64,000 bases of DNA from positions 641 to 64,640 of the forward strand of contig CAZEAP010000004.1 of assembly GCA_964510315.1 (NCBI GenBank), read 5' to 3'. The DNA is from an uncultured candidatus Brocadiaceae bacterium (GTDB lineage: Bacteria; Planctomycetota; Brocadiia; SM23-32). Each line of letters starts with the position of its first letter. Positions within the stretch are counted from its first letter, which is position 1. A model generated the notes under the pieces. That model saw nothing but the letters and a program-made list of their open reading frames with translations, made no database searches and was not told the origin of the DNA. Made by a program: the position numbers and the translations under genes. Shown one piece after another: positions 9,152 through 19,966 of the stretch.

Positions 9152-10204
9152 ATGGCGCTTCGCCTTATCGAGATGGTCTGCCCGGAGGATAAACGCCGGG
9201 AGGTGGAGGAACTGGTGATGGAGCACAAGACCCTGGGGCTGTGGCACGATCGGATGTTGGAGGAGCAGGTTCTGATCAAGATACTGCTCCAGGCCGAGCG
9301 TGCCGAAGAAGTGCTGGACCACCTGGAGAGCCACTACGGCGGGATGGAGGGCTTCCGGATACTGCTGCTTCCGGTTCAGGCGGCGCTTCCCCGGCCGGAG
9401 CTGCCTGCGGAGCCGCCCCACAGGGCGCCCTTCGAGGAGGCACCCAAGCATCTGCCCACCCGCATCAGCCGACACGAACTGCACGCCGAGATATCCGCCT
9501 CCGCCCAGCTTACAGTGGTGTTCCTGGTGATGATCGCCCTTTCCAGCGTTGTGGCGGCAATCGGCCTGTGGCGGGACAACGTGGCCGTCATCATCGGCGC
9601 CATGGTCATCGCCCCCCTGCTGGGGCCGAACATGGCCCTCGCCCTGGCCACCACCCTGGGGGACGGGGCGCTGGGGCGGAGGGCCCTGAAGACGTTGACC
9701 ACCGGCATCTGCACGGCGCTGGCGCTCTCGTTCCTGATGGGACTACTGCTGCGCCTTTTGCCGGCCCTCGGCGGACCGGCCGACTGGACCACCCGCGAGC
9801 TGATGATCCGGTCCCAGGTGCGGCTGGCCGACGTCCTGCTGGCCCTGGCGGCGGGCGGCGCCGGGGCCCTGGCCTTCACAACGGGCATCTCCACCGCACT
9901 GGTCGGCGTCATGGTGGCCGTAGCGCTGCTGCCTCCGCTGGTGGCCCTGGGTCTGGACCTGGGCATGGCGCAGTGGCGGATGGCGACGGAGGCAGGACTG
10001 CTGTTCGTGACCAACCTGATCTGCGTGAACCTGGCCGGGATGGCAACCTTCCTGCTGCACGGCATCCGGCCACGGACGTGGTGGGAGGCCGACCGGGCCA
10101 AAAAAGCCGCCCGAACCGCCCTGCTCATCTGGGTCGTGCTGCTTGTGGTGCTGGTCGCCCTCATCGTGCTGGCCCAGACCTGGCCCGCCGAAGCCGGCTC
10201 TTGA
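9152..10204 (+). CDS. TIGR00341/DUF389-family membrane protein
   Basis: Soluble N-terminal region followed by a block of hydrophobic helices (IGAMVIAPLLGPNMALALA ...), typical of the DUF389 architecture. Confidence 0.8.
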   Translation: MALRLIEMVCPEDKRREVEELVMEHKTLGLWHDRMLEEQVLIKILLQAERAEEVLDHLESHYGGMEGFRILLLPVQAALPRPELPAEPPHRAPFEEAPKHLPTRISRHELHAEISASAQLTVVFLVMIALSSVVAAIGLWRDNVAVIIGAMVIAPLLGPNMALALATTLGDGALGRRALKTLTTGICTALALSFLMGLLLRLLPALGGPADWTTRELMIRSQVRLADVLLALAAGGAGALAFTTGISTALVGVMVAVALLPPLVALGLDLGMAQWRMATEAGLLFVTNLICVNLAGMATFLLHGIRPRTWWEADRAKKAARTALLIWVVLLVVLVALIVLAQTWPAEAGS

Positions 10205-10307
10205 CCGCCGGCCCGAGCCGGGCCGCGGATGCACGCATCCCGCCGGCGGCATATAATGGAAGAAGTGACCGGTCCGCTGCAGCCATCGTAGCCTGCCCGG
10301 GGTTGGT

Positions 10308-11441
10308 ATGAACGGCAAAACGAACTTCACCCGCAGGGATTTCATCAAGGTCGCGGCCACGGGCGCGGGGCTTTCTCTCTGCCCGCTGGCCCTCTCCCGC
10401 TGCGCCGAGGCCGGCGAGGCAGCCGCCGTCAGCGACCACGAGGCCCTGTTCTGGGAGGAGTTCGGGGATTCCAAGGTCCACTGCACCCTCTGCCCCAGGG
10501 AGTGCATCGTGCCCGACGGCGCCCGGGGGGTCTGCGAGGTGAGGGAGAATCGGGGCGGCCTCTACCGAACCCTCGTCTACGGGAGGGCCTGCAGCGCCCA
10601 CGTGGACCCGATCGAGAAGAAGCCCCTCTTCCACTTCCTGCCCGGCACCCGGGCCTTCTCCATCGCCACGGCCGGCTGCAACGTGGAATGCCGGTTCTGC
10701 CAGAACTGGCAGATCAGCCAGGCCCGCCCTGAGGAACTCAGGACACGCTATCTGCCGCCGGAGGAGGTGGTCGCCGCGGCGGCCGGCAGCGACTGCAACA
10801 CCATCGCCTACACCTACTCGGAGCCCACGATCTTCTACGAGTACATGCTCGACACCGCGCGGGCAGGGCGGGAGGCCGGGCTGCACAGCGTCAGCATCAC
10901 CAACGGGTTCATCCAGGCCGAGCCGATGAAGCGGCTCTGCCGGCACCTCTCGGCGGTCAAGATCGACCTGAAGGCCTTCACCGAGGAGTTCTACCGGGAG
11001 TACGTGGGCGGCCGGCTGAAGCCGGTGCTGAAGACCATCGAGCTGCTCAAGGAACTGGGCATGCACGAGGAGCTGGTCATCCTGCTGATCCCCGGGCTCA
11101 ACGACAGCGACGAGGAGATCCGGGAGATGAGCCGATGGGTGGTGCGGAACCTCGGGCCGGACGTGCCGATGCACTTCTCCCGGTTCCATCCCGACTACAA
11201 GATGAGGAACCTCCCCCGCACACCGCCGCGGACGGTGGTGCGGGCGCGGGAGACCGCCGTCGCCGAGGGGGTCCGTTACGCCTACGTCGGCAACCTGCCG
11301 GGGCACCGGTACGAGAACACTTTCTGTCACTCCTGCGGCGAGCGCCTCATCGAACGCTATGCCTTCCACGTGGGAGAGGTGGCCGTCCGGGACGGCAAAT
11401 GCGCCCACTGCGGCGCCGAGGTCCCCGGCGTCTGGGCGTAG
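10308..11441 (+). CDS. amrS: AmmeMemoRadiSam-system radical SAM enzyme (AmrS-like) with N-terminal twin-arginine (Tat) signal peptide
   Basis: The Tat motif TRRDFIKVAATGAGLSL with AEA cleavage-like site. The upstream Cys cluster HCTLCPRECIV and the radical-SAM CNVECRFCQNW motif. C-terminal CHSCG...CAHCG. Confidence 0.85.
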   Translation: MNGKTNFTRRDFIKVAATGAGLSLCPLALSRCAEAGEAAAVSDHEALFWEEFGDSKVHCTLCPRECIVPDGARGVCEVRENRGGLYRTLVYGRACSAHVDPIEKKPLFHFLPGTRAFSIATAGCNVECRFCQNWQISQARPEELRTRYLPPEEVVAAAAGSDCNTIAYTYSEPTIFYEYMLDTARAGREAGLHSVSITNGFIQAEPMKRLCRHLSAVKIDLKAFTEEFYREYVGGRLKPVLKTIELLKELGMHEELVILLIPGLNDSDEEIREMSRWVVRNLGPDVPMHFSRFHPDYKMRNLPRTPPRTVVRARETAVAEGVRYAYVGNLPGHRYENTFCHSCGERLIERYAFHVGEVAVRDGKCAHCGAEVPGVWA

Positions 11442-11450
11442 AAGAACACA

Positions 11451-12443
11451 TCAGCTTCCCAGCTCCCTACGGAGAGCAAGGTACGTCGGCTTCGGACGAC
11501 ATGCCGGCTCGGCAGGAAGCCTTAGGTGATCGCGAAGCTGAGACCTGAAGTTGTCGACACCTGCGACTTTGTCTTTACGGCGCAGTTCCTTGAGGCGCGG
11601 TTCTGAAAGGCAAACCCGGCAATCGTCCTGGATAAACAGAAGAGATGTGTCAAACGCCTTGTGGTGCAGCGCGCACAAAGCGATCCCGTTTGACGTTTCG
11701 TCGGTGCTCTCCCTGTGCCTCACAGGCACGATATGGGCAGCGTCGACCAGCTCCAATTGCATATCACAGACGGCGCATGCGTGCTCGTAAGCAGTCAAGA
11801 CACGCCTTCGGAAACTGTAGCTCCTGACGTAGCGGGCTACTTCGTGGGTAAGCTTGGCGCGTGGCTTGCCGGTATCAGGTTCGGGAGGCAATGGAGCCTC
11901 GTCTTCGGACGCCTCTTCAATCTCTGCGTTCACAGCTTCGACCCAGGTCTCATCGCCGTTATGGAGATCCACAAGGTGCTCAATATAGACGCGCATCAGG
12001 TCCGGTCGGAAAGCAACAGTTATTTCATCCTCTGACCTGTAGTTGAGTGCGATGCCTGTTCGTTGCGCCCGGGCTAAAGCTACCTCCTTTACCTGCATTG
12101 ACGGTGACTTGGCTACCTCGCCTTGGTGTAAGCGGGCATCCCAGCCAGCGAACACCGCGTCTTCGTCCATCCAGCCCAGGATCAAGGTGGTATAGTCTCC
12201 GTCAGCAGCCACCTCCGAGACACCAGTTACCTGGATGCGGTACTCGTCTGGAGGCCGTAGATCGCCCCCGCCGTGTGTGATGTTCCAGATATAAATGCGG
12301 ACACTGAATGCGCTGTCAGAAGTGTAAACCTTGTAGTAGGCGGGGTGGGTTTCTGAGGAAGCAATGGGTTTGAAGTAGAGCCCCGATGCTCGGAAAGCGC
12401 CCTCAACTTTCCGCATCAGCTCCCGTTTAGCCAGCCGCGACAT
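11451..12443 (-). CDS. Type II restriction endonuclease, HNH (beta-beta-alpha-Me) family, with N-terminal putative recognition domain
   Basis: C-terminal HIVPVRHRESTDETSNGIALCALHHKAFD HNH motif. The ATG at 12443 is preceded by GGAG. Overlaps the upstream methyltransferase by 17 nt. Local GC is about 55-58% against about 67% for neighbours. Confidence 0.75.
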   Translation of the reverse strand: MSRLAKRELMRKVEGAFRASGLYFKPIASSETHPAYYKVYTSDSAFSVRIYIWNITHGGGDLRPPDEYRIQVTGVSEVAADGDYTTLILGWMDEDAVFAGWDARLHQGEVAKSPSMQVKEVALARAQRTGIALNYRSEDEITVAFRPDLMRVYIEHLVDLHNGDETWVEAVNAEIEEASEDEAPLPPEPDTGKPRAKLTHEVARYVRSYSFRRRVLTAYEHACAVCDMQLELVDAAHIVPVRHRESTDETSNGIALCALHHKAFDTSLLFIQDDCRVCLSEPRLKELRRKDKVAGVDNFRSQLRDHLRLPAEPACRPKPTYLALRRELGS

Positions 12444-13374
12444 TCCGTACTCCGGGGAACAGGTCGCCAGGGGTATCGAACCGGTAGGCGCTTGACTTGG
12501 CGTAATCCTGATCGACTTCGATGGCAATCCACCGGCGGTCCTTACGCTCTGCCACCGCACCCGTGGTGTTCGATCCCGCAAAGATGTCAACCACCAAATC
12601 GCCGGGATCTGTTAAGAAGTCTATGAAAAACTCGGGGAACTCCTCGGGGAACCTCGCGGGGTGTGGCTTCACTCCTTCTTCGCGACATCGCCGTAGGTAC
12701 TGCGTATTGCTCCGGGTGTTAGGCAAGCTGAGCAAGTTTGGCGGGATGGCCCCCTCGTTTCGCCGGGAAAAATTGCTGGAAATGTCATGTCCGCTGGGCC
12801 TGAGCTTGGGTTCGTAGCCCTTCTCAAGTAGTGATTTCATGCTGTCACTGTACGGCTTCAGCACCGCTCTATTGTCGGCCTTTGGTGTCTCCGTCAACGC
12901 AAGCCACCACACCACGTTAACAGCGTCTTTCACGCGGATGCGGCGGACATTTACCCACTCAGCAGGCGATGGCAGGCGAGCTGGGTTATAGTGAAAGAAC
13001 TCTTGAGCCAAAAAGAAACCATGCTGCTTGCAGAGCCGCACGAGAAGATCGAATTGGTAGATGCTACGCACGGGAGCGCCGGGAAGGTAGGCTCCGCCCA
13101 GATCTAGCACGAAGCTGCCGGACTCTTTAAGTACTTTCTTGATGCCCGGGACAAACGATAGGAACCAGCCCACGTACTCATCTGCGTCCTTGTTCCCATA
13201 GTCTTTCTTGCGGGTGAGAGCGAAAGGTGGCGAGGTGACGATCAGGTCGACGCTATTCGGGGGAACGCACTGCATAAAATCTCTGGCATCGGCGCAATAG
13301 CACGCCCCGCGATCCGTTACATATACCGGAAGCGGGGGAGCATGCCCTTCTTCGTCTGGAACCAAATCGACCAC
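12427..13374 (-). CDS. Site-specific DNA methyltransferase, beta-class amino-MTase (N4-cytosine or N6-adenine)
   Basis: Motif IV SPPF (LIVTSPPF) precedes motif I (VDIFAGSNTTG), the beta-class order as in M.PvuII-like enzymes. GTG start at 13374 with GGAGG six nt upstream. Confidence 0.85.
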   Translation of the reverse strand: MVDLVPDEEGHAPPLPVYVTDRGACYCADARDFMQCVPPNSVDLIVTSPPFALTRKKDYGNKDADEYVGWFLSFVPGIKKVLKESGSFVLDLGGAYLPGAPVRSIYQFDLLVRLCKQHGFFLAQEFFHYNPARLPSPAEWVNVRRIRVKDAVNVVWWLALTETPKADNRAVLKPYSDSMKSLLEKGYEPKLRPSGHDISSNFSRRNEGAIPPNLLSLPNTRSNTQYLRRCREEGVKPHPARFPEEFPEFFIDFLTDPGDLVVDIFAGSNTTGAVAERKDRRWIAIEVDQDYAKSSAYRFDTPGDLFPGVRNVAAG

Positions 13375-13663
13375 CGGACGCCTCCTTTGTGTGCGGAGAG
13401 TACAGCACCGGTACGAGTGCGTCAACAGTGGAAGCACTCGGGCAAAGGGTGGGTTTCCTCTGAAGGCAGTTACAGATCAGTTGACGCCGCGAACCGAAGA
13501 AGGTCGGAAGTGAACCCGGCGGCACCGGATGCGTGGGGTGGAGAGCTGAAGGCTCTACGCGAGCTGGATGGAGTCCCGTATTCCGCGAGGGACAGGAAGC
13601 ACTATTGCCATTGCGACCCCTCAGATGTGCTGCGTGAGCACTTTGCTTCGCTCCGAGAAACAA

Positions 13664-14515
13664 CTATGGCAATACGAGCAGGTGGACCATCTGCTCCAGG
13701 GGCTCCAGGTAGGCGCAGAGGTTGGTGCGGAAGATGATGGCCAGAAGAGCCCCCGTGCTCAGGAAAGGGCCGTAGGGCATGACGTGCTCCTCTTTGAAGA
13801 TCAGCAGCGGCAGCCCGTAGAGCAGGCCGATAAAAGGGGACAGAAAGAAGGTCACGACCACCACCTTCCACCCGAAGAACGCCCCGATCATGGCCATCAG
13901 CTTCACGTCGCCGAATCCCATCGCCTCACGGCGGAATATCACCGTGCCCACCACGGCAAAGGCAAGCACCAGCAGGCCCCCGCCGAACAGGCCAATCAGC
14001 GACGCAATCAGGCCGTCCAGCCGCGCCAGGCCCGTCAGCGCCTCGTAGGTGTGGTAGGCCGCGGGACCGACGTGCAGCTCCGGCAGGAGGAACCCCGCCA
14101 GCAGCCCGCCGGCCATCCCGAAGAAGGATATCTCGTCCGGTATGATCAGCCACTGGACGTCCACGGCCGCCGCCGCAATCAGCAGGGAAACCGCCATCAT
14201 CATGATGAGTATCTGTCCGGGCCCGGTTCCCGCCTGGATTCCCTGGCGGAAGTAGATCAGGGCGAACAGAAGCCCCGTCAGCCCCTCCACCAGCGGGTAG
14301 CGCCAGGAGATGGGCGCGCCGCAGTGCCGGCACCGCCGGCCCAGCAGGAGGAAGCTGAGCAGGGGGATGTTGTCGTACCATCGGATAGTCCGCTCGCAGT
14401 ACGGGCAGATCGAGCGGCTGGGCTCCCCCAGCGTGAGGCCCCGGGGCAGCCGCCAGATCAGCACGTTCAGGAAACTGCCCACCGCAAGCCCCAGCACAAA
14501 GCACCACAGGGTCAT
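13664..14515 (-). CDS. pilD: Prepilin peptidase / type IV leader peptidase (A24 family)
   Basis: N-terminal GSFLNVLIWRLP, CPYC...CRHC zinc-binding tetracysteine, GFGDVKL catalytic block, polytopic membrane profile. Start taken at the ATG encoding MTLWCFV. Confidence 0.85.
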   Translation of the reverse strand: MTLWCFVLGLAVGSFLNVLIWRLPRGLTLGEPSRSICPYCERTIRWYDNIPLLSFLLLGRRCRHCGAPISWRYPLVEGLTGLLFALIYFRQGIQAGTGPGQILIMMMAVSLLIAAAAVDVQWLIIPDEISFFGMAGGLLAGFLLPELHVGPAAYHTYEALTGLARLDGLIASLIGLFGGGLLVLAFAVVGTVIFRREAMGFGDVKLMAMIGAFFGWKVVVVTFFLSPFIGLLYGLPLLIFKEEHVMPYGPFLSTGALLAIIFRTNLCAYLEPLEQMVHLLVLP

Positions 14516-14619
14516 TACCACGTGGAACGCGCCGGGAGCGCCAATCGCCAAGGTTGCTCTCCTCTCAGCAGAGGGAGGCCGGGACACGGCCTATGGGTCA
14601 GCGGTCTGCCGCGCCGCCA

Positions 14620-16280
14620 ATCGAGCGGACGGCGTCAAAAAAAGCCGGACGCTGATTTACACTGATTCACACTGATCACAGAGTCTTGCTTTAACAGCGA
14701 TTTGACGATGGTGACTTCGAAAGCATACTACTTTCGTACCTGCCTTTTATCTGTGTCCATCAGTGTCGATCAGTGTCTGATTCTTCTGTTTGCCGGTTAT
14801 GCGCTGACGGCGTCAAAAAAAGCCGGACACGGATTTACACTGATTCACACTGATCACAGAGTCTTGGTCTGACAGCGATTTGACGATGGTAACGTCGAAA
14901 GCATAGCACTTTCGTACCTGCCTTTTATCTGTGTCCATCTGTGTCCATCAGTGTCTGATTTTGTCGGTGTCGGCTTGCGGCGCTCCGCACAAAGACGACC
15001 GGACGCTGATTTACACTGATTCACACTGATCACAAAGTCTTGGTTTGACAGCGACTTGGCGGTGGTGACTTCGAAAGCATACTACTTTCGTACCTGCCTT
15101 TTATCTGTGTCCATCAGTGTCCATCAGTGTCTCATTCTTTTGCTTTCGGAGTCGCCCGCCCACTCATTCTCATTGATCGAAGATTCTCCGTTTCACCTCC
15201 ACCTCTCGCCCGAAGTTGATCAGCAGCCCGACTTCCATCTCCGTTGCCTTCAGATAGTTGACCAGTTGCACCTCATGGAGGGGCTGCAACTCCGTTACGG
15301 CCTTGATCTCTACGAGAACCTTGTCTTCAACCACCAGGTCGGCGACGTAATTCCCGACAATCTCGCCGGCGTACATAACCTTCACGGGTACCTGTTGCCG
15401 GAGCGCACACCCTGTCTGGTGCAACTGAAGGGCAAGAGCATTCTCGTAAACCTTCTCCATAAACCCGTGGCCGAGCGTGCTATGCACCTCGTACGCCGCG
15501 CCGATGATCTTTTCGGTTACACCGGAGTGCTTGTAATCTGGAGTCATCCGTGGCGATCAGTATCTGATTCTGTTGGCCTCGGCCTAAAAAACGACTGGAC
15601 GCTGATTTACACTGATTCACACTGATCGAAAAGTCTTCGTTCAACCGCGTTCTGAGGACCGCATTGCGTCCGGGAACGGAACTTGACGCAGGCAGGATTT
15701 CCGGCCCTGCCTTTTATCTGTGTCCATCAGTGTCGATCAGTGTCTGATTTTGTCGGTGTCGGCTTGCGGCGCTCCGCACAAAGACGACCGGACGCTGATT
15801 TACACTGATTCACACTGATCACAAAGTCTTGGTTTGACAGCGACTTGGCGGTGGTGACTTCGAAAGCATACTACTTTCGTACCTGCCTTTTATCTGTGTC
15901 CATCAGTGTCGATCAGTGTCTGATTCTTCTGTTTGCCGGTTATGCGCTGACGGCGTCAAAAAAAGCCGGACGCTGATTTACACTGATTCACACTGATCAC
16001 AAAGTCTTGGTTTGACAGCGACTTGGCGGTGGTGACTTCGAAAGCATACTACTTTCGTACCTGCCTTTTATCTGTGTCCATCAGTGTCGATCAGTGTCTG
16101 ATTCTGTTGGCCTCGGCCTCCAAAACGACTGCACGCTGATTTACACTGATTCACACTGATCACAAAGTCTTGGCTTGACAGCGACTTGGCGGTGGTGACT
16201 TCGAAAGCATACTACTTTCGTACCTGCCTTTTATCTGTGTCCATCAGTGTCGATCAGTGTCTGACTCTGTTGGGGCCGTC
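14620..16280. repeat. Tandem array of seven ~133-bp units with terminal inverted iterons (CACTGAT x3 / ATCAGTG x2), separated by three recurring 30-45-bp linker types
   Basis: Units start near 14651, 14829, 15005, 15601, 15794, 15971 and 16135. Each begins GCTGATTTACACTGATTCACACTGATCACA and ends CCATCAGTGTCGATCAGTGTCTGATTC; the ends are reverse complements of each other and the heptamers are spaced 10 bp apart. Central part has a CGAAAGCATACTACTTTCG hairpin; unit 4 has a divergent core. Linkers recur in three types, each with a short GC hairpin plus an A-run plus CGACYGGAC. GC is about 45%. Confidence 0.9.
15170..15547 (-). CDS. GxxExxY protein (TIGR04256-like; PD-(D/E)XK nuclease superfamily, PDDEXK_3)
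   Basis: 125 aa with GAAYEVHSTLGHGFMEKVYENAL and YVADLVVEDKVLVEIKA (the D...E-x-K core). Embedded in the repeat array: a full 3' inverted iteron precedes its 3' end and a partial one (CGATCAGTATCTGATTC) follows its start. GC is about 54%. Confidence 0.85.
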   Translation of the reverse strand: MTPDYKHSGVTEKIIGAAYEVHSTLGHGFMEKVYENALALQLHQTGCALRQQVPVKVMYAGEIVGNYVADLVVEDKVLVEIKAVTELQPLHEVQLVNYLKATEMEVGLLINFGREVEVKRRIFDQ

Positions 16281-16281
16281 C

Positions 16282-18276
16282 TTAGAGATCAGCGTCCTGC
16301 ACCAGCAGCAGGTTGCCGAAGGCGCCGGGGTTCCTCTCCTGCCTTTCCCGTCCCGTCCAGCTAAGCCGGATATGCCTCTCACCTTCTTCGTCGAAGCTGA
16401 GCTGCACCAGGTCGAAGCCGATCACGTCCGGCCGCCCGTCGACCTGGGAGAATACTTTCCACGGGATGGCGCAGTCAAGGCGGTAGCCGGTGGCGGTGCG
16501 GCTTGCCTTTGCCTCCACCTCCTCGCTGCTCACCGTCGGTTCCGACCCCTCCTCGCCGGGGTTGACCGTTACGTGCATGACACCCTCTTTGCCGGGCTTG
16601 CCCAGGTCGCGCGGCTCCCGGCCGTCGACGAATATGCGGAGCCCGTCTTTGGCGGGATTGAGCAGGTCGTCGTCGATCTCGGCCCACACGTAGAGGTTGT
16701 CATCGTCCCAGGCGGCCACCCAGTCGAAGCTGTGGCCGTCAAGCTCCTGATCTGAGGTGTGGACGGGATGCAGCGGGGAGGGCACGTGCAGCAGGGGGCC
16801 CGACGGGGCTTCGGCCCCGAGACCATAGTCCTCGGCCCGGGAGGCGGCGGCAACCACGAAGTGCAGGTGTTCCAGCGTGTGGGAACCGTCGAACTCAATC
16901 AGCGCGTCGAGGCTCAGGGTTTCCAGTGGCCTCCTGGCGGTCACCTCCACGTCCTTGTGCCGACGGGCGTAGGGGCCCAGCTCCTCCAGCTCGAACTCGC
17001 CGGCCGAGACCTGCTCCTCCCGGTGCGAGCCGATGCTCACCCTGACGGCCTCCTGTTTCTGGTCGGTGAAGTTCTTCAGGTTGCAGCGGAGCTTCACGTT
17101 GAGCATTCCGGGCTCGGCCGACTCTGCGCCGCGCAGTTCACTCCATCCGGCGACGCTTCCGGCGCGCTCGTCGAGCACCTCGACGGCTTCGCTCAGCCGG
17201 GCGGGTATGTCCAGCTCCTGGGGACACTCCTCCAGGCACTGTCCGCACAGCCGGCAGAGCGCCGCCTTCCCGGCCAGGGACGCGTAACGGCTCCTGGCAT
17301 GGTCGGTCAGGCCGAAGACGCGCTCCAGGTTGAGTATCTCGAAGTTGGCCGGGATGTCCACGCCGGCGGGGCAGGGCATGCAGTAGTTGCAGCCGGTGCA
17401 GTAGAGGCCGGCCAGTTCCTTGCGCTCCTGGATGGCCGCCTCGATGTGCTCGTGCTCCTCCGTGGTCAGCTCTCCGGCTTCCGAGACGGTCCGGGCGTTC
17501 TCCTCGAGCTGCTCCATGGTGGACATGCCGGAGAGGGCGAGGGTGACGTTCTCATTGGATAGCACGAAACGGAGGGCCAGTTCGGGGGTGCTCTCCACGT
17601 CGCCGACCAGTTCGGCGGCTTTCTCGCTGGGGTAGCCCAGCCGTCCGCCGCCCACCGGTCCCATGATCTCCACGCCCATGCCGTGCTCGGCGGCGTAAGT
17701 GATGCCCTCCTCCAGGTGACGGTCCAGCAGGTTGTACTGCAGCAGCACGGACTCGAAAAGGCCGGTGTCCACGCACTTCTTCAGGCTCTCGCAGGAGCCG
17801 TGGAACGAGTGACAGATATGGCCGATAAGGCTCTGCTCCTTTGCCTTCAGCATTTCCTGGTAGAGGCCGTCGTCGCCCGCAACGGCCTTCTCGAACCGCT
17901 CGTAATTCATGCCGTGGAACTTGTAGACATCAATGTAATCGGTGCGGAGACGTTCCAGGGAATCTTCCAGGTTCTTCCACCACCCGTCCTTGTCATCCCT
18001 GTCATAGTGGTGGTTCTTGGTGGAGAGTATGACCTGGTCGCGCACATCCTCCAGTGCCTCGCCGATGACCCTCTGGCTGTCGCCGCCACAGTACATCACG
18101 GCGCTGTCGAAGTAGTTAATGCCCAGCTCCACGGCCCTTTGGAGCATGGGGATGGCTTTTTCTCTGTCCACCTCGTTCTTGGACTTCATGGGGAGGCGCA
18201 TGCATCCGAAGCCCAGCCGCGAAACTTCCAATCCCGTCTTGCCCAGCGTGGCGTACTGCATGGTCACTACCTTCAT
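16282..18276 (-). CDS. Aldo/keto reductase fused to a ferredoxin-like di-cluster Cys domain and a C-terminal CBM9-like/DOMON-like domain
   Basis: The N-terminal ~320 aa are aldo/keto reductase ([26 protein letters not shown]). Residues ~290-350 carry [17 protein letters not shown] and [18 protein letters not shown]. The C-terminal ~170 aa ([20 protein letters not shown] ... [13 protein letters not shown] ... GNLLLV) match the CBM9-like sugar-binding fold. 664 aa. Confidence 0.85.
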
Positions 18277-19042: not shown

Positions 19043-19966
19043 TCAGGCTTCCACTGCGTAGCGGAAGAAGCCGACCTCCTGGAGCGCCTCGCCCAGCGCG
19101 TCCAGTTCCTGCCCCCCCAGAGGTCGGAGCGGCGGGCGGGGTGGGCCACAGTCCAGGCCGATCAGTTTCATCGTCGCCTTGGCGGCCCGAACGCCGCCGA
19201 ACCGGCCGAGCACGGCGATCATCTCGGCCGCCCGATGCTGGTCGGCGCGGGCGGCGGCCAACTCGCCCCTCCCGAAGGCTTCCATCAGGCGCAGGTAAAG
19301 CGGCGCGGCGAAGTTGTAAGTGGCCCCCACAGCGCCCCGCGCCCCCAGCGCCAGCGCCGAGAGGAGAATCTCGTCGCGTCCGAACAGCATGTCGAACCGC
19401 CCCTCTTCGTAGCGCAGGCACCGCCCGTAGTCCATCAGGTCTTCGCAGGTGAACTTCATCCCGGCCAGGGTGGGTATTCTGTCCGCGGCTTCCCGCAGGA
19501 AATCTATCATCGGCAGGTCCACGCCGGTCATCGCGGGGATGTGGTAGTAGTAGAAGGGTGTAGAGGGGGCGGCCGAGGCGGCCCGCTCGCAGAAGTTCAC
19601 CAGGTCCGGCGCCGCCTGCGGTTTGAAGAAGAAAGGGGCCATTGCACCGACGGCGTCGGCACCGATCCGCTCCGCATGCTCGGCCAGGGCGCGGCATTCC
19701 TGCAGGGACGTGTGCCCGGCGTGCACAATAACCGCGAAATCCTCCGGTGTGGCCGCCACCCAGCGTTCGGCGACCGTTCGCCGTTCGTGAGTGCTGAGGG
19801 AAGGGCCTTCGCCGGTGGTTCCGCAGACGAAGGCGCCGCGCACCCCGGCGTCCGCCAGCGCGCCGGCCAGGGGCTCGATGGCGGCCGCGTCCAGCGCGCC
19901 GTCGGAGGAGAGGGGGGTCGGCGGCGCGGCTATCAGGCCCTCCAGATTCGGCGTTTCCATGGTCAC
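19043..19966 (-). CDS. Dihydrodipicolinate synthase / N-acetylneuraminate lyase family class I aldolase
   Basis: GTTGEGPSLS, YYYHIP, and the Schiff-base Lys in AGMKFT. 307 aa TIM-barrel aldolase pattern. Confidence 0.85.
   Translation of the reverse strand: MTMETPNLEGLIAAPPTPLSSDGALDAAAIEPLAGALADAGVRGAFVCGTTGEGPSLSTHERRTVAERWVAATPEDFAVIVHAGHTSLQECRALAEHAERIGADAVGAMAPFFFKPQAAPDLVNFCERAASAAPSTPFYYYHIPAMTGVDLPMIDFLREAADRIPTLAGMKFTCEDLMDYGRCLRYEEGRFDMLFGRDEILLSALALGARGAVGATYNFAAPLYLRLMEAFGRGELAAARADQHRAAEMIAVLGRFGGVRAAKATMKLIGLDCGPPRPPLRPLGGQELDALGEALQEVGFFRYAVEA

Follow-up and report, generated by a model that had tools for sequence, protein, structure and literature searches.

We report on a 64,000-nucleotide stretch of DNA from an uncultured candidatus Brocadiaceae bacterium (contig CAZEAP010000004.1, positions 641 to 64,640; hereafter the window), in which an inserted array of about 1.65 kb separates an aldo/keto reductase-like (AKR-like) gene from a prepilin peptidase gene (pilD). 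The array is composed of short repeated units and a single gene of the GxxExxY family, which fills one unit slot (15138-15570). The explanation we favour, though by a cautious judgement that places it only somewhat on the probable side, is that the array consists of miniature elements of one family, each with terminal inverted repeats (TIRs) at its ends. The nuclease encoded by the gene would recognise the short phased repeats (iterons) in these TIRs, and the gene-less units would be its offspring, comparable to miniature inverted-repeat transposable elements (MITEs) or to REPINs (doublets of repetitive extragenic palindromic, or REP, sequences that form hairpins).

The short units measure about 148 nt and are bounded by inverted triplets of CACTGAT-type iterons with a 10-bp period. 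When up to two mismatches are allowed, CACTGATNNACACTGAT is found 28 times in the window, all at 14650-16259 (shuffles give 0.02). In gene orientation (minus strand) a short unit consists of an L arm (GAATCAGACACTGAT-CGA-CACTGAT-GGA-CACAGAT), a core and an R arm (GATCAGTG-TGA-ATCAGTG-TAA-ATCAGCGTCCGG). Units U1-U3 and U5-U7 are about 148 nt long; U4 (154 nt) shares the arms, the first 45 nt and the last ~55 nt with the others and has a different centre. The window resembles a contig of a metagenome-assembled genome (MAG), and the order and number of the near-identical tandem units could reflect assembly. The parts of the array are as follows:

14636..16299, no strand: whole inserted array between the AKR-like gene and pilD (seven short units, one gene-bearing unit and one solo iteron)
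14636..14783, minus strand: short unit U1 (arms 14650-14676 and 14749-14775)
14784..14815, no strand: inter-unit spacer type A (again at 15927-15956; its first 17 nt again at the pilD-side edge, 14619-14635)
14816..14961, minus strand: short unit U2 (arms 14828-14854 and 14927-14953)
14962-14989 and 15751-15778, no strand: inter-unit spacer type B, recurring
14990..15137, minus strand: short unit U3, directly downstream of the gene in gene orientation (arms 15004-15030 and 15103-15129)
15571-15596 and 16105-16130, no strand: inter-unit spacer type C, recurring
15597..15750, minus strand: variant short unit U4 (arms 15600-15626 and 15716-15742)
15779..15926, minus strand: short unit U5 (arms 15793-15819 and 15892-15918)
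15957..16104, minus strand: short unit U6 (arms 15971-15997 and 16070-16096)
16131..16267, minus strand: short unit U7 (arms 16134-16160 and 16233-16259)

Two other identities of the array were considered and dropped. A CRISPR-like (clustered regularly interspaced short palindromic repeat) array was rejected given the 148-nt repeats, 'spacers' that recur as three types and the lack of cas genes. Integron attC cassettes and plasmid-origin iterons were set aside because the repeats are of another design and neither an integrase gene nor a rep gene is present.

The gene occupies 15170..15547 on the minus strand and encodes a protein of 125 aa. A preliminary description of this DNA had assigned it to the GxxExxY family with a PD-(D/E)XK core, and profile searches agree: PF13366 (PDDEXK_3) is matched at E 1.3e-41 (142 bits, cut-off 22) over residues 10-120, and TIGR04256 (GxxExxY) over the full length at E 4.6e-42 (143.1 bits, cut-off 35). 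PDDEXK_3 is the sole Pfam match, and a second open reading frame (ORF) was not found within the gene-bearing unit. The motifs quoted at the time are all present (G28-F-M-E31-K-V-Y34, and D70 with E80-I-K82 inside YVADLVVEDKVLVEIKA). An alignment of 47 sequences shows no variation at E31, D70, E80 and Y98 and a conservation of at least 90% at K82 and Q94; the predicted catalytic set (E31, D70, E80, K82, Q94, Y98) is intact in the window gene. The same description called this gene the only ORF in the array, which holds for real genes; mechanical ORFs do exist, for example 15056..15625 on the plus strand, but this one is merely antisense. Its remark that the GC content of the gene is intermediate was correct (0.55, against 0.48-0.52 for the units and 0.63-0.68 for the flanking genes).

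The structure prediction that had been suggested as a check points the same way. In the AlphaFold2 model (mean predicted local distance difference test score, pLDDT, 92.8) the elements are ordered alpha-alpha-beta-beta-beta-alpha-beta-beta, and H31-44, E49-59, E62-73, E77-82, H89-102 and E106-112 make up the alpha-beta-beta-beta-alpha-beta core of PD-(D/E)XK enzymes. The top Foldseek matches to the model are all PD-(D/E)XK nucleases, with LHK-Exo, lambda exonuclease and Cas4 SSO0001 as the best (3syy, E 1.2e-4; 4ic1, E 1.8e-4), at template-modelling scores of just 0.48-0.57. The model thus confidently predicts a RecB/Cas4-like nuclease fold. A PADLOC match to Cas4 is weak (E 0.015, residues 64-108), and a search for a solved structure related by sequence to GxxExxY/PDDEXK_3 proteins found none. 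The family is large (18,616 clusters at 50% identity, E <= 1e-3), and the sole classification paper that we found to mention it lists it as 'Unknown' (PMC3424549).

Two side observations concern the proteins of the family. Many representatives (P0241-P0245, P0263, P0267 and others) are 250-295 aa long with two matched stretches, that is, tandem fusions of the GxxExxY domain. Judged from their sequences these may stem from reading through tandem genes or may be genuine pseudo-dimers; in the latter case a dimer would be suggested as the working unit. Furthermore, the called N-termini of P0058, P0060, P0064, P0022 and others are extended (for example by MDADERRLTQSRMK or MSTDSGHQ) and resemble translated iterons; start codons in the family are therefore probably often mis-called, and iteron arrays likely give rise to spurious small ORFs.

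The gene carries arms of its own, both of them degenerate:

15530..15575, minus strand: upstream (L) arm of the gene, which reads GAATCAGATACTGATCGCCACGGATGACTCCAGAT on the minus strand and has the ATG inside an iteron
15153..15178, minus strand: downstream (R) arm of the gene, overlapping the codons F-D-Q-stop

At the start of the gene the L arm runs CCACGG-ATG-ACTCCAGAT. A repeat search recovers 15519-15583 as the eighth copy of repeat family D2; it is 68% identical to the reference arm and reaches the first codons of the gene. At the other end the gene reads TTC GAT CAA TGA GAATGAGTG, so that its last codons and stop constitute the degenerate R arm, with 15 of 18 positions matching between 15161-15178 (CACTCATTCTCATTGATC) and the arm of a unit (CACTGATTCACACTGATC). 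The preliminary description had rightly placed a partial iteron immediately 5' of the ATG (CGATCAGTATCTGATTC, 15554-15570) and a complete arm on the other side of the gene (15103-15129). Its view that the gene is flanked by 3'-type arms holds only in part: the upstream iteron is present, but the gene has degenerate copies of both arms and its downstream R arm had been overlooked. The arms of the short units are canonical and better conserved than these decayed ones.

Anchored ungapped comparisons reveal what the short units have in common with the gene. At the L end about 42 nt are shared between the short units and the gene-bearing unit, including ATG GAC ACA GAT, the first four codons of the gene. 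At the R end about 65 nt are shared, among them what remains of the gene's final 10 codons: just ahead of the stop position, standard units encode VAVKPRLCDQ and U4 AVERRLFDQ, where the gene has VEVKRRIFDQ. The 30-nt relic also resembles the last 30 coding nucleotides of 81 GxxExxY genes from other loci (mean 13.5/30 matches, against 8.2 +/- 2.35 in other in-frame windows of the same genes), and 75% of these genes exceed the 95th percentile of that null. A comparable case is seen in L003, where two short units beside the gene likewise run on into its N-terminal codons (GCAGATTAC..GGCA..GGCG). Because the short units hold relics of both the first and the last codons, they are internal-deletion derivatives of the gene-bearing element, which is what had been proposed at the outset for these non-autonomous forms.

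Comparison with related MAGs shows that the array was inserted. Two contigs from related MAGs (L093 and L094) have the AKR-like and prepilin peptidase genes side by side in the same collinear order; their AKR proteins share about 71% identity with the one in the window. The gap between the two genes measures 153 nt in L093 and 66 nt in L094, against about 1.7 kb in the window, and neither gap contains iterons. Given these short gaps, the window array is an insertion relative to the orthologous loci. The features at its borders are:

13664..14587, minus strand: prepilin peptidase gene (A24_N_bact plus Peptidase_A24), native flank, collinear with L093 and L094
16282..18276, minus strand: aldo/keto reductase - 4Fe-4S - CBM9-like gene (AKR), native flank, collinear with L093 and L094
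16282..16299, minus strand: solo iteron, CAG GAC GCT GAT CTC TAA, which gives the AKR-like gene a 5-codon extension (QDADL-stop)

The window AKR protein ends in ...LLLVQDADL, whereas most of the ~40 closest orthologues stop within 1-2 residues of LLLV/LLIV and none of them has the QDADL tail. As this tail and its stop codon are the solo iteron, an end of the element has replaced the native stop. Between related MAGs of the Brocadiia type (L003 versus the window) the location of the GxxExxY gene itself differs, the two sites being unrelated. As a separate observation, the native AKR end in L093 (7990-8015) reads GCTGCTGATGGTGGACTGATCAACGC and has two CTGAT motifs 11 nt apart, at the exact site where the array begins in the window; this faint iteron-like sequence may be due to chance or may mark a preferred target.

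Linkage between gene and iterons extends over the family. We retrieved 80 metagenome loci with the family profile, a set that is biased to relatives at least 49% identical to the query. A phased iteron cluster lies within 110 nt of the gene in 56 of the 71 non-redundant genes with both flanks available (79%), against 0.9% of random positions. The preliminary description had named paralogues without iterons as one finding that would speak against its reading, and with this outcome the idea stands. Among the 71 genes an L-type cluster is found upstream in 37 and an R-type cluster downstream in 39 (both in 27). Strict iteron clusters number 240 in 645 kb, against 0-2 in block shuffles. Measures that are blind to the motif give similar results: exact 7-mers repeated at a lag of 9-11 nt occur at 14.9 per kb in the 120-nt flanks of the gene and at 1.18 per kb elsewhere (where they are mostly of the same motif family), and when the genes are set against the remaining long ORFs of their contigs, the figures are 80% for the genes and 15.5% for these ORFs.

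The two arms also co-vary within a locus. The similarity in iteron spectrum between the two sides of the gene is 0.66, against 0.16 +/- 0.04 when permuted (maximum 0.30 in 1000 permutations). As a consensus, an arm has a T-rich stretch followed by RGA and by the series CRCNGAT-(T/G)AA-CACNGAT, and so forth, with a period of 10 bp in 151 of 209 spacings and of 9 bp in 57. The length of arm-bounded units is bimodal: 30 units with the gene measure 410-756 nt and 34 without it 47-178 nt, with none in between. Relatives that are not syntenic share just ~440 nt, which corresponds to the gene and its arms. The three nearest relatives on record all have the gene between iterons; in L008 the iterons (CACGGAT) build a near-perfect TIR of ~35 bp, and in L005 the gene-bearing unit is placed between an ATP-sulfurylase gene and a phosphodiesterase gene. 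Of a different appearance are L054 (2673-5427) and L035 (96-1007), where ACAGGAT-type clusters form arrays in one orientation, an inverted partner was not detected and the arrangement is unlike that of L..R units.

Units are also dispersed without the gene. L060 (Ga0315298_1003435) is an AT-rich replica of the window, with tandem units of ~100 nt on both sides of the gene (R arm upstream and L arm downstream, the gene's own arm being a degenerate L only). Its unit sites lie at 9655-10602, 17961-18167 and 19456-19786, two further intergenic sites standing 8-9.7 kb from the gene. The units are strictly intergenic, and the distant gene-less ones fall between unrelated ORFs. By alignment, identity between sites (72%) is close to that within sites (74%), and one distant pair is ~94% identical by eye. 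In Gemmatirosa kalamazoonensis a short unit of the CGCGGAT type is located just downstream of the gene; it recurs at 7 and 10 places on two megaplasmids and is absent from all other plasmid records. A tblastn search (E 1e-10) finds GxxExxY at two places on the first megaplasmid and at none on the second.

The taxonomic range is wide. Relatives in cultured bacteria (35-46% identity) carry iterons as well: in Bacteroides finegoldii CACAGAG iterons with a 9-bp period flank the gene on both sides, in Treponema saccharophilum a single inverted pair of ACACGGATTCG surrounds it, and in a Fusobacteria strain R-type iteron-like repeats are present on both sides. The same architecture is found in MAGs labelled Omnitrophica and Brocadiia and in L008, and the order L-gene-R also in one MAG labelled Euryarchaeota and in a single locus of IMG/VR (labelled viral). 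In total the linkage spans at least seven phylum-level labels plus the archaeal-labelled MAG. A tblastn search of 50,697 phage records gave no match, which together with the one IMG/VR locus indicates that the family is essentially cellular. A 20-mer scan of contigs produced two exact matches to the window. One is a four-iteron cluster (CGCTGATAAACACGGATTACACTGATTCACACTGAT) just after a peptidase-like gene at the end of locus L002 (7954-7989; Acidobacteriaceae MAG CAZISB010000022.1), which shares the exact 20-mer with a window arm; the other, in L001, was dismissed as chance since it falls inside a coding region.

The arms themselves tell something about the way in which they may be read. Between the two arms of a unit identity is 84% in iteron columns against 51% in the columns between iterons. 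The central base of CRCNGAT differs between the arms in 23 of 53 pairs for gene units and in 27 of 44 for short units. Commonly the coding strand has the same base at this position in either arm, and a hairpin formed by the arms would then have a mismatch at the centre of each 7-bp helix. As single-stranded DNA a unit does fold through its arms (-26.7 kcal/mol, z = -2.4), modestly better than shuffles. Phasing of a 7-9 nt motif at 9-10 bp is typical for proteins that bind on one face of duplex DNA. On balance the arms appear to favour recognition of the duplex by a protein rather than a hairpin. The ACAGGAT class of iterons goes with a distinct protein clade that has substitutions of its own (for example at K100), while proteins within a class are only slightly more identical to each other (58.3% against 55.1%), an excess that host phylogeny might explain. 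For CAC[A/T]GAT versus CACGGAT no determinants of specificity were found in the proteins; users of the two do not separate, which fits a central base that is left unread by the protein.

In the explanation that we favour, the full-length form is about 0.43 kb long and consists of an L arm, the 125-aa GxxExxY gene and an inverted R arm. Its L arm comprises a T-rich part, RGA and two to three copies of CRCNGAT at a 9-10 bp period. The start and stop codons of the gene fall within the innermost iterons or adjoin them, and the seven short units are deletion derivatives that retain both arms and the relics of the first and last codons. The protein, presumably a minimal RecB/Cas4-type PD-(D/E)XK nuclease, would oligomerise on the phased iterons along one face of the duplex, pair the two arms and cut at or near the conserved RGAC / GAC terminus. 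Host repair or recombination might then copy or move units to intergenic sites, often beside existing units, and homogenise them, and gene-less units could be mobilised in trans like MITEs or REPINs. Since canonical short units here stand beside a gene with decayed arms, that gene would be a trans-acting, possibly domesticated, source of protein. That the protein acts on the iterons had been suggested beforehand; the linkage and the co-variation of the arms lend this computational support, and it is from such patterns that we infer binding, cleavage and a way of moving.

A number of observations weigh against this explanation. A search outside the arm boundaries in 63 of the 64 units found no consistent direct repeat (target-site duplication), and the 64-kb window contains this single array only. 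A hydrolytic PD-(D/E)XK nuclease on its own cannot carry out strand transfer, and the integration step is without known precedent. Part of the window array was built by segmental duplication, as follows from the recurring spacer types and from a 300-nt two-unit block (repeat family D1) that is duplicated at 93% identity. Four syntenic pairs of loci keep the gene and its iterons at one site (71-89% nucleotide identity), which means that turnover is slow at many loci. About 21% of the genes lack a strict iteron cluster, and in about 17% an R-type arm or a complete hairpin unit takes the upstream position of the L arm. Finally, the loci used to define the iteron classes were also those scored afterwards, a problem from which the motif-blind tests (7-mer lag and ORF comparison) are free.

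Some of these points are accommodated by a reading in which the repeats are maintained as in RAYT/REPIN systems (RAYT: REP-associated tyrosine transposase): the iterons would still be recognised, but the units would be retained by the host for a structural, nucleoid or mRNA-end role and the gene would be a vertically inherited caretaker. The syntenic pairs, the strictly intergenic position of units, the presence of typically a single gene per 20-kb locus against many short units, and the degenerate arms of the gene beside canonical short units are all in line with such domestication. Nonetheless we consider it unlikely, as the array is missing at the orthologous site of two related MAGs (so that units are still being gained), the gene occupies unrelated sites in related Brocadiia-type MAGs, and no host function can be named. 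It departs from the favoured explanation in the beneficiary alone and involves the same molecular coupling. It might also be argued that nothing moves, and that GxxExxY genes were duplicated in tandem after which all but one decayed by internal deletion, with the iterons as operator- or terminator-like signals of the gene. The relic start and end codons, the recurring spacers with their duplicated two-unit block, and a tandem pair of GxxExxY genes in L049 (95.5% identity) would suit this view. We regard it as improbable, though, because unrelated ORFs flank gene-less units that stand 8-9.7 kb away from the gene and one Gemmatirosa megaplasmid has 10 unit places without a GxxExxY match at E 1e-10. 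Moreover, arms are better conserved in the short units than at the gene, six units have identical deletion end-points (implying amplification of an already-deleted unit), and a promoter and terminator scan called no sigma-70-like promoter or intrinsic terminator in the arms (2 promoter-like sites against 1.1 expected, neither within an arm, and 0 terminator-like sites).

The lack of target-site duplications and of a deducible integration chemistry could also mean that the units are mobilised by an enzyme encoded at some unlinked place in the genome, for instance a transposase, and often take the GxxExxY gene along as passenger or cargo; to our knowledge, PD-(D/E)XK hydrolases do not transpose DNA alone. 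We give this very little credence, given that 5 of 82 loci is the most in which any other gene family recurs and that the iteron class tracks the protein clade (ACAGGAT, K100); a linkage over at least seven phylum-level labels and an archaeal-labelled MAG, with ATG and stop inside the arms, would then be hard to explain. Least credible of all, in our opinion, is an element that works at the RNA level, with arms that pair in the transcript (as a processing site, mRNA stabiliser or intervening-sequence-like stem) and units that are structured non-coding RNAs. The hairpin through the arms, calculated for single-stranded DNA, and the location of all parts on the transcribed strand of an operon-like AKR-pilD run would agree with it. 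Against it are the mere 51% likeness between arms in the inter-iteron columns, the often non-complementary central base, the 9-10 bp phasing that is typical of duplex-bound proteins, the absence of called terminator-like sites and an Rfam search of 14000-17000 on both strands without a match at E <= 1.

Two further observations concern the surroundings of such units. Beyond the prepilin peptidase gene of the window lie an N6_N4 DNA methylase (12427-13437, minus strand) and a protein with MTaX1 and HNH_2 (11451-12590, minus strand), which together (11451-13437) are likely a restriction-modification pair. Its GC content is 0.55-0.58 against 0.66 in the flanks and the synteny with L093 and L094 stops there, so that it looks like a second lineage-specific insertion beside the array. 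In L096 (2291-5536), the MAG labelled Euryarchaeota, the neighbours of a GxxExxY unit are several short ORFs resembling epimerases/dehydratases and two toxin-antitoxin pairs (BrnT/CopG and DUF4258/MqsA-like). Small selfish genes may here have colonised a sugar-nucleotide gene cluster that is now in fragments.

Compared with known systems, the REP/REPIN-RAYT association comes closest (PMC3116915, PMC3337134, PMC5581495). There too a usually single small gene is flanked by inverted repeats that are abundant as intergenic, often clustered, gene-less copies; the gene is often vertically stable and no target-site duplication is seen. However, RAYT is a HUH/Y1 transposase (IS200/IS605-like) where we find a 125-aa PD-(D/E)XK fold, and a REP consists of one hairpin that carries a GTAG or CGTC tag, where the present repeats are sets of 2-3 phased iterons of 7-9 nt. 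Relics of the coding ends in the gene-less units are a further difference. Next in likeness are pairs of an insertion sequence (IS) and its MITEs: TIRs common to the coding and short forms (also in L003 and L060), a bimodal length, a short form that is an internal deletion of the long one, dispersed amplified derivatives and empty orthologous sites. Here, in contrast, there is no DDE, serine, tyrosine or HUH enzyme and no target-site duplication, and the ATG and stop lie inside the repeats. At ~0.43 kb the full element is also smaller than any autonomous IS we know of. The defining enzyme of both systems is absent, and by analogy the present element would work like them without being a member of either.

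Other systems resemble parts of the design. The Cas4/RecB/lambda-exonuclease nucleases are the best structural matches and share D...ExK followed by QxxxY (Q94, Y98), but the window protein is about half their size; Cas4 is ~200 aa long with a four-cysteine iron-sulphur cluster, whereas the window protein (125 aa) has a single Cys; nor are cas genes or CRISPR nearby (the neighbours being the AKR-like gene, the prepilin peptidase and the methylase/HNH pair). I-Ssp6803I exemplifies homing endonucleases of the PD-(D/E)XK type, which are free-standing or intron-borne. These are likewise small proteins in a selfish insert that spreads by cleavage and host repair, yet their genes come without iteron TIRs and without families of gene-less mini-copies, and in our case no cognate empty target can be defined. 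Plasmid replication iterons are also short, phased direct repeats that presumably bind protein; they differ in that the array has no rep gene, AT-rich unwinding element or DnaA boxes, and its repeats are 7-9 nt long, arranged in inverted sets, chromosomal, intergenic and present at multiple loci. Eukaryotic transposons with subterminal repeats (CACTA/En-Spm, foldback and hAT/Kat1; PMC1636448, PMC4763223) have several short phased repeats per arm, which bind the element's own protein, and MITE-like derivatives. Being eukaryotic, DDE-type and kilobases long, they are alike in design only.

No description of the repeats emerged from a full-text literature search with the family names and six iteron strings, which brought up only the 'Unknown' table entry (PMC3424549) and incidental mentions; the coverage of this search excludes some journals and database free-text, so an earlier note is possible. 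Overall, the results suggest a miniature mobile or domesticated DNA element that was previously undescribed. A wider proposal, which we put forward tentatively and hold to be rather less than probable, is that GxxExxY/PDDEXK_3 proteins serve as the enzymes for miniature DNA elements of a class that spans many phyla and has so far gone unrecognised. At ~0.43 kb these elements would be smaller than any other known autonomous TIR element, and they would move or convert by means of a hydrolytic RecB/Cas4-like nuclease that reads phased CRCNGAT iterons instead of by a DDE, HUH, serine or tyrosine recombinase. As their MITE/REPIN-like offspring they would have the iteron hairpin units of 50-180 nt that are found between the genes of many gut and environmental bacteria.

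For a large orphan family this work provides a concrete hypothesis, namely sequence-specific action on 7-9 nt iterons beside its own gene. The phased inverted sets of the CRCNGAT/ACAGGAT type make up a widespread and apparently unnamed family of intergenic repeats, found in Planctomycetota, Omnitrophota, Bacteroidota, Gemmatimonadota, Spirochaetota, Fusobacteriota, Acidobacteriota and an archaeal-labelled MAG. Such repeats affect annotation, both through spurious ORF calls and through altered gene ends such as the QDADL tail. If the element has been domesticated, it would be a second, independent association of the RAYT/REPIN kind; if the nuclease drives the spread of the units, it would represent a new enzymatic route to DNA mobility as well as a compact, programmable-looking module for DNA recognition.

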